Source: Escherichia coli (GTDB taxonomy: Bacteria > Pseudomonadota > Gammaproteobacteria > Enterobacterales > Enterobacteriaceae). From it: a stretch of 64,000 bases of DNA. The notes beneath the pieces were generated by a model. That model was not told where the DNA came from. It did not search any database and saw only the letters and a program-made list of their open reading frames with translations. The stretch lies in NCBI RefSeq assembly GCF_003334315.1, contig NZ_QOWR01000016.1; one strand, 5' to 3'. The position numbers were made by a program, and so were the translations under genes. Below, piece by piece: positions 36,533 through 40,247 of the stretch (position 1 is the first letter of the stretch; every line of letters begins with the position of its first letter).

Positions 36533-37009
<477 letters not shown>

Positions 37010-37052: not shown

Positions 37053-37078
37053 AAAAAGGCCGCTATGCGGCCTTTTAT
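37053..37078. terminator. bidirectional intrinsic terminator between convergent greA and yhbY
   Basis: ggccgc tat gcggcc stem flanked by aaaaa upstream and tttt downstream. Confidence 0.7.
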
Positions 37079-37164
37079 CAACGAACAGAGCGTGGCATTT
37101 TGCTCTCCTGCCTGCGGAAAACCCCTCGTTTTACACAGCAAATGTGTGTAACTTTAGGATAATC

Positions 37165-37458
37165 TTAGCGTGGCAGCGAGATTTTACGTTCTTTAGTTGG
37201 GCGATAAAGCACCAGCGTTTTACCGATGACCTGTACATTACAGGCGCCGGTTTCGCGCACGATAGCTTCCACGATCAAGGTTTTAGTTTCGCGATCTTCG
37301 GTGGCGATTTTCACCTTGATGAGTTCATGGTGCTCTAACGCTTGTTCAATCTCGGCCAGCACCCCTTCGGTCAAACCATTACTGCCAAGCAGAACAACTG
37401 GCTTGAGCGGATGTGCCAGACCTTTCAGGTGCTGTTTTTGTTTAGTACTCAGATTCAT
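37165..37458 (-). CDS. yhbY: CRM-domain RNA-binding protein YhbY
   Basis: 97-aa ORF MNLSTKQKQHLKGLAHPLKPVVLLG... Confidence 0.93.
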   Translation of the reverse strand: MNLSTKQKQHLKGLAHPLKPVVLLGSNGLTEGVLAEIEQALEHHELIKVKIATEDRETKTLIVEAIVRETGACNVQVIGKTLVLYRPTKERKISLPR

Positions 37459-37481
37459 CGTATTTTTTGCTTACGTTGGGA

Positions 37482-37509
37482 TTGAAAACGGGTCATTCTA
37501 CCGCCATCT
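37482..37509 (+). promoter_or_regulatory. candidate sigma32 heat-shock promoter of rlmE-ftsH
   Basis: TTGAAA 37482-37487, 13-bp spacer, CCGCCATCT 37501-37509 (consensus TTGAAA-N13-15-CCCCATNT); alternative -10 CCCATAT at 37510-37516. Confidence 0.45.
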
Positions 37510-37583
37510 CCCATATATCACCAAATAGGCGCGTAAAAATTTACGCAATTGGTTACGATGAGTTATCCCCATGGGAAAGTTAA

Positions 37584-38213
37584 ATGACAGGTAAGAAGCG
37601 TTCTGCCAGCTCCAGCCGCTGGCTTCAGGAACACTTTAGCGATAAATATGTTCAACAGGCACAGAAAAAGGGGTTACGTTCCCGTGCCTGGTTTAAACTT
37701 GATGAAATACAGCAAAGTGACAAACTCTTTAAACCGGGAATGACGGTTGTCGACCTTGGTGCTGCTCCGGGTGGTTGGTCACAATATGTGGTCACCCAAA
37801 TTGGCGGCAAAGGCCGCATCATCGCTTGCGATCTTTTACCTATGGATCCTATCGTTGGTGTGGACTTTCTTCAGGGCGATTTTCGTGATGAACTGGTGAT
37901 GAAAGCACTGCTGGAGCGCGTTGGCGACAGCAAAGTCCAGGTTGTCATGTCCGATATGGCACCAAACATGAGCGGAACACCGGCGGTGGATATCCCCCGT
38001 GCCATGTATCTGGTGGAACTGGCGCTAGAAATGTGTCGTGATGTATTAGCGCCAGGTGGCAGTTTTGTAGTGAAGGTGTTCCAGGGCGAAGGTTTCGATG
38101 AGTATCTAAGGGAAATTCGCTCCCTGTTTACGAAGGTTAAAGTTCGTAAGCCGGACTCTTCTCGTGCACGTTCGCGGGAAGTGTATATTGTAGCGACCGG
38201 GCGTAAACCCTAA
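37584..38213 (+). CDS. rlmE: 23S rRNA (uridine2552-2'-O)-methyltransferase
   Basis: 209-aa ORF; SAM-binding motif [13 protein letters not shown]. Confidence 0.97.
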
Positions 38214-38312
38214 CCGGGAGATTTCAGACGAAAGTTTGAAAGATGCTGGATATAGAGTATCCTGACGCTGTTTTTAACACAGTTGTAATAAGAGGTTAAT
38301 CCCTTGAGTGAC

Positions 38313-40247
38313 ATGGCGAAAAACCTAATACTCTGGCTGGTCATTGCCGTTGTGCTGATGTCAGTATTCCAGAGCTTTGGGCCCAGCGAGTCTAATGGCC
38401 GTAAGGTGGATTACTCTACCTTCCTACAAGAGGTCAATAACGACCAGGTTCGTGAAGCGCGTATCAACGGACGTGAAATCAACGTTACCAAGAAAGATAG
38501 TAACCGTTATACCACTTACATTCCGGTTCAGGATCCGAAATTACTGGATAACCTGTTGACCAAGAACGTCAAGGTTGTCGGTGAACCGCCTGAAGAACCA
38601 AGCCTGCTGGCTTCTATCTTCATCTCCTGGTTCCCGATGCTGTTGCTGATTGGTGTCTGGATCTTCTTCATGCGTCAAATGCAGGGCGGCGGTGGCAAAG
38701 GTGCCATGTCGTTTGGTAAGAGCAAAGCGCGCATGTTGACGGAAGATCAGATCAAAACGACCTTTGCTGACGTTGCGGGCTGCGACGAAGCAAAAGAAGA
38801 AGTTGCTGAACTGGTTGAGTATCTGCGCGAGCCGAGCCGCTTCCAGAAACTCGGCGGTAAGATCCCGAAAGGCGTCCTGATGGTCGGTCCTCCGGGTACC
38901 GGTAAAACGCTGCTGGCGAAAGCGATTGCAGGCGAAGCGAAAGTTCCGTTCTTTACTATCTCCGGTTCTGACTTCGTAGAAATGTTCGTCGGTGTGGGTG
39001 CATCCCGTGTTCGTGACATGTTCGAACAGGCGAAGAAAGCGGCACCGTGCATCATCTTTATCGATGAAATCGACGCCGTAGGCCGCCAGCGTGGCGCTGG
39101 TCTGGGCGGTGGTCACGATGAACGTGAACAGACTCTGAACCAGATGCTGGTTGAGATGGATGGCTTCGAAGGTAACGAAGGTATCATCGTTATCGCCGCG
39201 ACTAACCGTCCGGACGTTCTCGACCCGGCCCTGCTGCGTCCTGGCCGTTTCGACCGTCAGGTTGTGGTTGGCTTGCCAGATGTTCGCGGTCGTGAGCAGA
39301 TCCTGAAAGTTCACATGCGTCGCGTACCATTGGCACCCGATATCGACGCGGCAATCATTGCCCGTGGTACTCCTGGTTTCTCCGGTGCTGACCTGGCGAA
39401 CCTGGTGAACGAAGCGGCACTGTTCGCTGCTCGTGGCAACAAACGCGTTGTGTCGATGGTTGAGTTCGAGAAAGCGAAAGACAAAATCATGATGGGTGCG
39501 GAACGTCGCTCCATGGTGATGACGGAAGCGCAGAAAGAATCAACGGCTTACCACGAAGCGGGTCATGCGATTATCGGTCGCCTGGTGCCGGAACACGATC
39601 CGGTGCACAAAGTGACGATTATCCCACGCGGTCGTGCGCTGGGTGTGACTTTCTTCTTGCCTGAGGGCGACGCAATCAGCGCCAGCCGTCAGAAACTGGA
39701 AAGCCAGATTTCTACGCTGTACGGTGGTCGTCTGGCAGAAGAGATCATCTACGGGCCGGAACATGTTTCTACCGGTGCGTCCAACGATATTAAAGTTGCG
39801 ACCAACCTGGCACGTAACATGGTGACTCAGTGGGGCTTCTCTGAGAAATTGGGTCCACTGCTGTACGCGGAAGAAGAAGGTGAAGTGTTCCTCGGCCGTA
39901 GCGTAGCGAAAGCGAAACATATGTCCGATGAAACTGCACGTATCATCGACCAGGAAGTGAAAGCACTGATTGAGCGTAACTATAATCGTGCGCGTCAGCT
40001 TCTGACCGACAATATGGATATTCTGCATGCGATGAAAGATGCTCTCATGAAATATGAGACTATCGACGCACCGCAGATTGATGACCTGATGGCACGTCGC
40101 GATGTACGTCCGCCAGCGGGCTGGGAAGAACCAGGCGCTTCTAACAATTCTGGCGACAATGGTAGTCCAAAGGCTCCTCGTCCGGTTGATGAACCGCGTA
40201 CGCCGAACCCGGGTAACACCATGTCAGAGCAGTTAGGCGACAAGTAA
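38313..40247 (+). CDS. ftsH: ATP-dependent zinc metalloprotease FtsH (AAA+)
   Basis: Track ORF starts TTG 38304 (MSDMAKNL); ATG 38313 gives 644 aa; Walker A GPPGTGKT, Walker B IIFIDEID, zinc motif HEAGH; AAGAGG SD is 9 nt from the TTG and 18 nt from the ATG, so start uncertain by 3 codons. Confidence 0.93.

Follow-up and report, generated by a model that had tools for sequence, protein, structure and literature searches.

The sigma-32 promoter rlmEp2 of the Escherichia coli rlmE-ftsH operon: register of the -10 element, conservation in Enterobacterales, and DNA shared with a probable divergent promoter of yhbY

Results

The element at positions 37482–37517 of the E. coli DNA analyzed here (a stretch of 64,000 nucleotides, referred to as the window) is almost certainly rlmEp2, the sigma-32 (RpoH) heat-shock promoter of the rlmE(ftsJ/rrmJ)-ftsH(hflB) operon. 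This promoter is already catalogued and its recovery is an ordinary finding; it is part of a textbook heat-shock circuit, and its confirmation adds nothing new. What is added is comparative proof of the -10 register that is used, together with the description of a stretch of DNA that the promoter shares with a likely promoter of yhbY.

Locus and gene order

Window positions were converted to K-12 coordinates as NC_000913.3 position = 3365248 - window position. The stretch 37400–37640 is 100% identical to E. coli K-12 MG1655, and 37100–38400 is present at at least 99% identity in 5426 of 5426 complete E. coli genomes. The gene order is dacB (-), greA (+), yhbY (-), rlmE (+), ftsH (+), folP, glmM. 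The divergent yhbY/rlmE spacer runs from 37459 to 37583, in line with the 125 bp given for it in the preliminary description of this DNA.

Genes around the promoter:
36533–37009, + strand, greA
37165–37458, - strand, yhbY; start codon ends at 37458
37584–38213, + strand, rlmE (ftsJ/rrmJ), first gene of the operon; ATG at 37584
38313–40247, + strand, ftsH (hflB), second gene of the operon; transferred RefSeq annotation

The catalogued promoter and its start

A RegulonDB table, reprinted as supplementary material to PMC5493296, assigns rlmEp2 to RpoH and places it on the reverse strand, starting at 3325753; of its three evidence codes, direct promoter assay and transcription-initiation mapping are graded strong and human inference of position weak (PMC5493296). 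The coordinate must refer to U00096.2, because in NC_000913.3 the same position falls inside ftsH. The offset from U00096.2 to version.3 at this place we take to be +1978, from upstream insertions of 776, 1, 1199, and 2 bp; when checked on the sigma-32 promoter of yhdN (yhdNp), it gave a purine start and the A of CCCCAC at -11. The converted start of rlmEp2 is 3327731, equal to A37517 in the window, which is also the start predicted from the register of the promoter elements (see below); an error of 1 nt is possible. The K-12 promoter of RegulonDB, formerly the ftsJ/rrmJ promoter, is thus the same DNA, without any difference.

Binding of the sigma factor to this spacer has been recorded by several methods. 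In genomic SELEX with purified RpoH holoenzyme, the rrmJ/yhbY spacer gave a peak of intensity 14.1, the third highest (PMC5493296). In a sigma-32 ChIP-chip study, the target ftsJ is placed at 3325757, at about 37513 in the window. In the ChIP-chip data of Cho 2014, a sigma-32 region (SigH_324) and a sigma-70 region (SigD_1318) both cover the site; these regions are about 0.5–1.5 kb wide, hence individual promoters are not separable in them. In published papers, rrmJ-ftsH is described as a heat-shock operon of which both genes are heat-induced and co-expressed with chaperone genes. The preliminary description, in which the element was assigned to sigma-32 and linked to heat-shock control of rlmE(ftsJ)-ftsH, therefore matches RegulonDB rlmEp2, the RpoH SELEX peak and the sigma-32 ChIP-chip target. 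One ftsJ-hflB promoter was reportedly found to be sigma-32-dependent by Herman et al. in 1995, and the ftsJ-hflB promoter is said to have been placed in the sigma-32 regulon by Nonaka et al. in 2006.

Promoter elements and register

Elements of rlmEp2:
37482–37487, + strand, -35 element TTGAAA; 6/6 match to the sigma-32 -35 consensus; 98–100% conserved (64 distinct sequences)
37488–37501, + strand, 14-bp spacer from TTGAAA to CGCCAT; length 14 in 81/81 sequences
37501–37509, + strand, -10 region CCGCCATCT, -16 to -8; present in 75/81 loci, single substitutions elsewhere
37510–37516, + strand, CCCATAT, stretch between -10 and start, -7 to -1; 21–22 nt from the -35
37517, + strand, transcription start, A; RegulonDB 3325753 (U00096.2) converted; A in 64/64 distinct sequences

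The strings and coordinates of the preliminary description (TTGAAA, 13 nt, CCGCCATCT, CCCATAT) are right when read in place: exactly 13 nt, ACGGGTCATTCTA (37488–37500), separate TTGAAA from CCGCCATCT. The two -10 candidates, which had been said to overlap, actually abut, as CCGCCATCT ends at 37509 and CCCATAT begins at 37510.

The published sigma-32 consensus consists of CTTGAAA, 13–15 bp, and CCCCAT, with CCCCATWT as the -10; the 14-bp spacer of rlmEp2 falls inside this range. The base that precedes TTGAAA is A, as against C in the consensus, and the core CGCCATCT (37502–37509) agrees with CCCCATNT at 7 of 8 positions, with G for C at -14. Both this site and dnaK P1 have a TTGA-type -35, CCAT preceded by a C-rich extended -10, with the A of CCAT at -11, and a purine as the first transcribed base. 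The natural -35 of dnaK P1 is TTGATG, replaced by TTGAAG in the scaffold of the sigma-32 open-complex cryo-EM structure; in that scaffold CTTGAA spans -35 to -30 and the A of CCCCAT lies at -11. When this register (A of CCAT at -11) was applied to the rlmE site, the start was predicted at A37517. The two promoters differ in the spacer between the -35 hexamer and the CCCCAT position (14 in rlmEp2, 13 in dnaK P1), in the G for C at -14 (one of the two extended -10 positions), and in the A, not C, before the -35. The working register of rlmEp2 is TTGAAA-N14-CGCCATCT, with the A of CCAT at -11.

Of the 64 distinct sequences, 63 share the non-consensus base G37503 (-14; the extended -10 has C here), the role of which may be to adjust promoter strength or to serve a promoter on the opposite strand.

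Conservation across Enterobacterales

A scan of species-representative genomes based on RlmE gave 80 loci, from Enterobacteriaceae, Erwiniaceae, Pectobacteriaceae, Yersiniaceae, Hafniaceae, Budviciaceae, Morganellaceae, and Zophobihabitans; with the window, 81 sequences were compared, and conservation per column was computed over the 64 distinct ones. The layout TTGAAA-N14-CGCCATCT was found in all 80 other loci, 81–160 nt 5' of the rlmE ATG, two of them carrying one or two substitutions: Zophobihabitans (TTGTAA...CGCCATAT) and Candidatus Erwinia dacicola (CACCATCT), the only loci with substitutions in the element. The -10 core is conserved in 80 of the 81 sequences (CGCCATCT, n = 79; CACCATCT, n = 1), the remaining one being CGCCATAT.

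Conservation by column:
37492–37494, + strand, mid-spacer; 47–84% conserved
37495–37500, + strand, ATTCTA, 3' half of the spacer; 94–100% conserved
37501–37509, + strand, columns of CCGCCATCT; 94–100% conserved
37511–37515, + strand, between -10 and start; 38–69% conserved
37516–37518, + strand, TAT; 95–100% conserved, A37517 invariant
37521–37523, + strand, CCA; 98–100% conserved

CCCATAT is kept in only 12 of the 81 loci, and past about 37526 the leader is weakly conserved and differs in length between families. Constraint on the -35, the -10 and the start, as opposed to the variable remainder, is what a promoter should show and singles out the first of the two -10 candidates.

A wider search with the RlmE protein, aimed at Vibrio, Pseudomonas and others, returned only Enterobacterales among the best 120 matches, so that conservation outside the order rests on one published site of Shewanella. 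This site, in front of Shewanella oneidensis rrmJ (SO1196), is a weight-matrix prediction, GTTGAAA-AACCGCT-ATTCTA-CCCTTATATA, laid out as in rlmEp2, with ATTCTA likewise 7 nt from TTGAAA; its -10 is CCCTTATAT, compared with CCGCCATCT in rlmEp2.

Chance occurrence of the motif

The strict pattern TTGAAA-N13-15-CCCCATNT has no match in the 64-kb window, the rlmE site requiring the mismatch at -14. The degenerate pattern TTGAAA-N14-CNCCATNT has one match on both strands of the 64 kb, where dinucleotide shuffles give an expectation of 0.02. When the threshold is relaxed to at least 12 of the 13 specified bases with spacers of 13–15, the rlmE site is still the sole and top-scoring site of the window, for which first-order Markov simulations predict about 0.27 such sites. 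By itself the motif is thus only moderately improbable in 64 kb; it is more than a chance occurrence because of its position in the 125-bp spacer before rlmE and because of its conservation.

A candidate divergent promoter of yhbY

Elements of the putative yhbY promoter:
37495–37500, - strand, predicted sigma-70 -10 TAGAAT; 5/6 consensus match; embedded in the rlmEp2 spacer
37519–37524, - strand, predicted -35 TTGGTG, 18-bp spacer; overlaps the first transcribed bases of rlmEp2; takes in the 98–100% conserved CCA of 37521–37523

To our knowledge, sigma-32 promoters have no need for a fixed spacer sequence. The conserved ATTCTA in the spacer of rlmEp2 becomes TAGAAT when the opposite strand is read, and this hexamer probably serves as -10 for a divergent sigma-70 promoter of yhbY, as judged from its sequence and conservation. 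It is the only acceptable minus-strand -10 anywhere in the yhbY/rlmE spacer, and its variants among the 81 loci (TAGAAT in 77, TACAAT in three, TATAAT in one) change only position 3 of the hexamer. Position 3 is the least critical one of a -10. The candidate -35 (TTGGYG at 18 bp; other registers at 17 and 15 bp) matches the consensus at 3–4 of 6 positions in three registers. Since yhbY heads its unit and conservation is lacking elsewhere in the spacer, the yhbY promoter most likely lies in the conserved block, with its start near 37488.

The yhbY sigma-70 promoter and the rlmE sigma-32 promoter would then be interleaved back to back within about 45 bp, with the hexamers of each in the spacer or the transcribed region of the other, which would account for the frozen state of the whole block 37476–37525. 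In a further-reaching model, which we consider rather doubtful, only one polymerase could be accommodated at once, and heat shock would switch transcription from sigma-70-driven yhbY to sigma-32-driven rlmE-ftsH, in an arrangement fixed in Enterobacterales and apparently kept in Shewanella. If true, repression of the ribosome assembly factor yhbY would be coupled to induction of another ribosome-biogenesis gene; if confirmed, the locus would provide a compact case of sigma-factor competition between two divergent genes, each of them acting on the large ribosomal subunit.

Alternative readings of the conserved block

Three other readings of the site were considered. The first is that the 45-bp block is conserved mainly as the opposite-strand yhbY promoter and its leader, with the sigma-32-like hexamers not driving rlmE. 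It draws on TAGAAT (37500–37495) as the sole good minus-strand -10 of the spacer, and on the fact that TTGAAA would fall in the putative yhbY leader, conservation extending over the entire block as far as the yhbY ATG. We consider it very improbable: CCGCCATCT is 94–100% conserved although it would lie inside the spacer of the yhbY promoter, where sigma-70 constrains the sequence little; the sigma-32 binding data and the mapped start on the plus strand would still stand; and the two promoters jointly account for the conserved block better than either does singly.

According to the second reading, the element would be either a common sigma-70 promoter or no promoter, its resemblance to a sigma-32 site would be incidental, and the heat induction of the operon would come from elsewhere. 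TTGAAA does match 5/6 of the sigma-70 -35, the sigma-70 ChIP region SigD_1318 covers the site, and a sigma-70 start exists upstream at 37161/37162. Against this, the plus strand has no sigma-70 -10 (A at position 2, T at position 6, at least 4/6 matches) at 15–19 bp from TTGAAA, a separate promoter scan likewise gave none at that distance, and the sigma-70 reading of the plus-strand element was rejected for lack of a suitable -10 hexamer; without a TATAAT-like hexamer at that distance, the rlmEp2 element is unlikely to give much sigma-70 transcription. Purified RpoH holoenzyme selects the yhbY/rlmE spacer in vitro, the sigma-32 ChIP-chip signal is centered at about 37513, RegulonDB records RpoH dependence with mapping and direct-assay evidence, and the C-rich -10 is invariant throughout a bacterial order. 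With all this, the second reading has next to no probability left.

Equally hard to credit is the third reading, in which (T)CCCATAT (37509–37516) is the functional sigma-32 -10 and the start lies some 7–8 nt further 3', around 37524: TCCCATAT does fit 7/8 of CCCCATAT, as well as CGCCATCT does, but it lies 21 nt from TTGAAA (CCCATAT 22 nt), beyond the 13–15 bp range, no -35-like hexamer is found 13–15 nt 5' of it (the CGGGTC region), its CCCATAT recurs in 12/81 Enterobacterales sequences as against an essentially invariant CGCCATCT, and the catalogued start A37517 is directly 3' of it. Its poor conservation and its place directly before the catalogued start led us to reject this second -10 candidate. 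Which of the two is used, earlier held to be undecidable from sequence, can therefore be decided: CGCCATCT is separated from the -35 by 14 nt and conserved in 80/81 sequences, CCCATAT is separated from it by 21–22 nt and found in 12/81. We infer that CCCATAT just fills the interval from the -10 to the start and is no -10 element.

Proposed mode of action of rlmEp2

In the sigma-32 reading preferred here, RNA polymerase with sigma-32 would read TTGAAA (37482–37487) as the -35 and, over the 14-bp spacer, CCGCCATCT (37501–37509) as extended -10 plus -10; transcription would begin at A37517 and give a 67-nt leader. Heat or protein misfolding would raise sigma-32 and in this way yield more RlmE (a 23S rRNA methyltransferase) and more FtsH protease. 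FtsH degrades sigma-32, and the promoter belongs to the feedback loop that ends the heat-shock response; with more FtsH made from rlmEp2, this negative loop would be closed.

Leader, upstream starts and neighboring features

Further features on the rlmE side:
37517–37583, + strand, 5' untranslated leader of rlmE-ftsH, 67 nt; small hairpin at 37531–37546
37161–37162, + strand, sigma-70 starts (EHEC EDL933), about 420 nt upstream; mapped through the EDL933 record

The leader had no match in an Rfam search, and its fold is no better than that of shuffled sequence (z = -0.36). Its hairpin, GCGTAA-AAAT-TTACGC (37531–37546, +15 to +30), recurs in Kluyvera, Pluralibacter, Enterobacter, and Citrobacter. 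The Citrobacter version (GTGTA/TACAC) shows one compensatory pair, and in other families different small hairpins are found at about the same place in the leader. The hairpin may act as a 5' stabilizer.

The name rlmEp2 implies that at least one further promoter is catalogued. By Cappable-seq of EHEC EDL933 under non-stress conditions, starts were found at 4158211 and 4158212 (PMC9927249), which map to A37162 and A37161 of the window, just beyond the yhbY stop codon; RT-PCR gave read-through, antisense to yhbY, into rlmE-ftsH (PMC9927249). Basal, non-stress expression of rlmE-ftsH is probably driven mainly from this separate sigma-70 start at 37161/37162. The promoter region of these starts (37120–37165, + strand) contains TTTACA and the inverted repeat ACACA-N6-TGTGT (37133–37148), of which the arms are conserved and the center is variable in core Enterobacteriaceae genera; the region is absent from other families.

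An ORF of 100 codons (37226–37528, + strand), antisense to yhbY, corresponds to 'oloz4542', an overlapping gene claimed for EHEC EDL933 (PMC9927249); in full length it is confined to Escherichia and Shigella (PMC9927249). The sigma-32 promoter lies inside the last 47 nt of this ORF.

On the far side of yhbY, a GC-rich hairpin AAAAGGCCGC-NNN-GCGGCCTTTT (37054–37076, both strands) with A and T runs at its flanks is kept across families; it looks like a bidirectional terminator common to greA and yhbY, and its Rfam matches, to STnc540 and STnc420, are below threshold only. An RpoS-holoenzyme SELEX peak at 3326238 (U00096.2), at about 37032 in the window, falls in the spacer 3' of both greA and yhbY (PMC5493296). 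The RegulonDB tables further contain two sigma-E promoters: greAp2, a mapped promoter at 3326875 (U00096.2; about 36395 in the window, + strand), and ftsHp1, which is purely computational and lies inside rlmE at 3325124 (about 38146 in the window, + strand).

The rlmE-ftsH spacer holds, in the region 38214–38263 (+ strand), an insert of about 55 nt that is shared by most sampled Enterobacteriaceae and by two Erwiniaceae; where other families were sampled, the conserved ftsH leader directly follows the rlmE stop. Within the insert there is a sigma-70-like TTGAAA-16-TATCCT (38236–38263), the -10 of which is one arm of the hairpin GGATA-TAGAG-TATCC (38248–38262). The ftsH ORF extends from a TTG at 38304, 8 nt past GAGG (38292–38295), while the annotated ATG at 38313 lies 17 nt from GAGG; the stretch 38304–38318 hardly varies between families, even at third codon positions, and the annotated ATG may not be the true start codon of ftsH.
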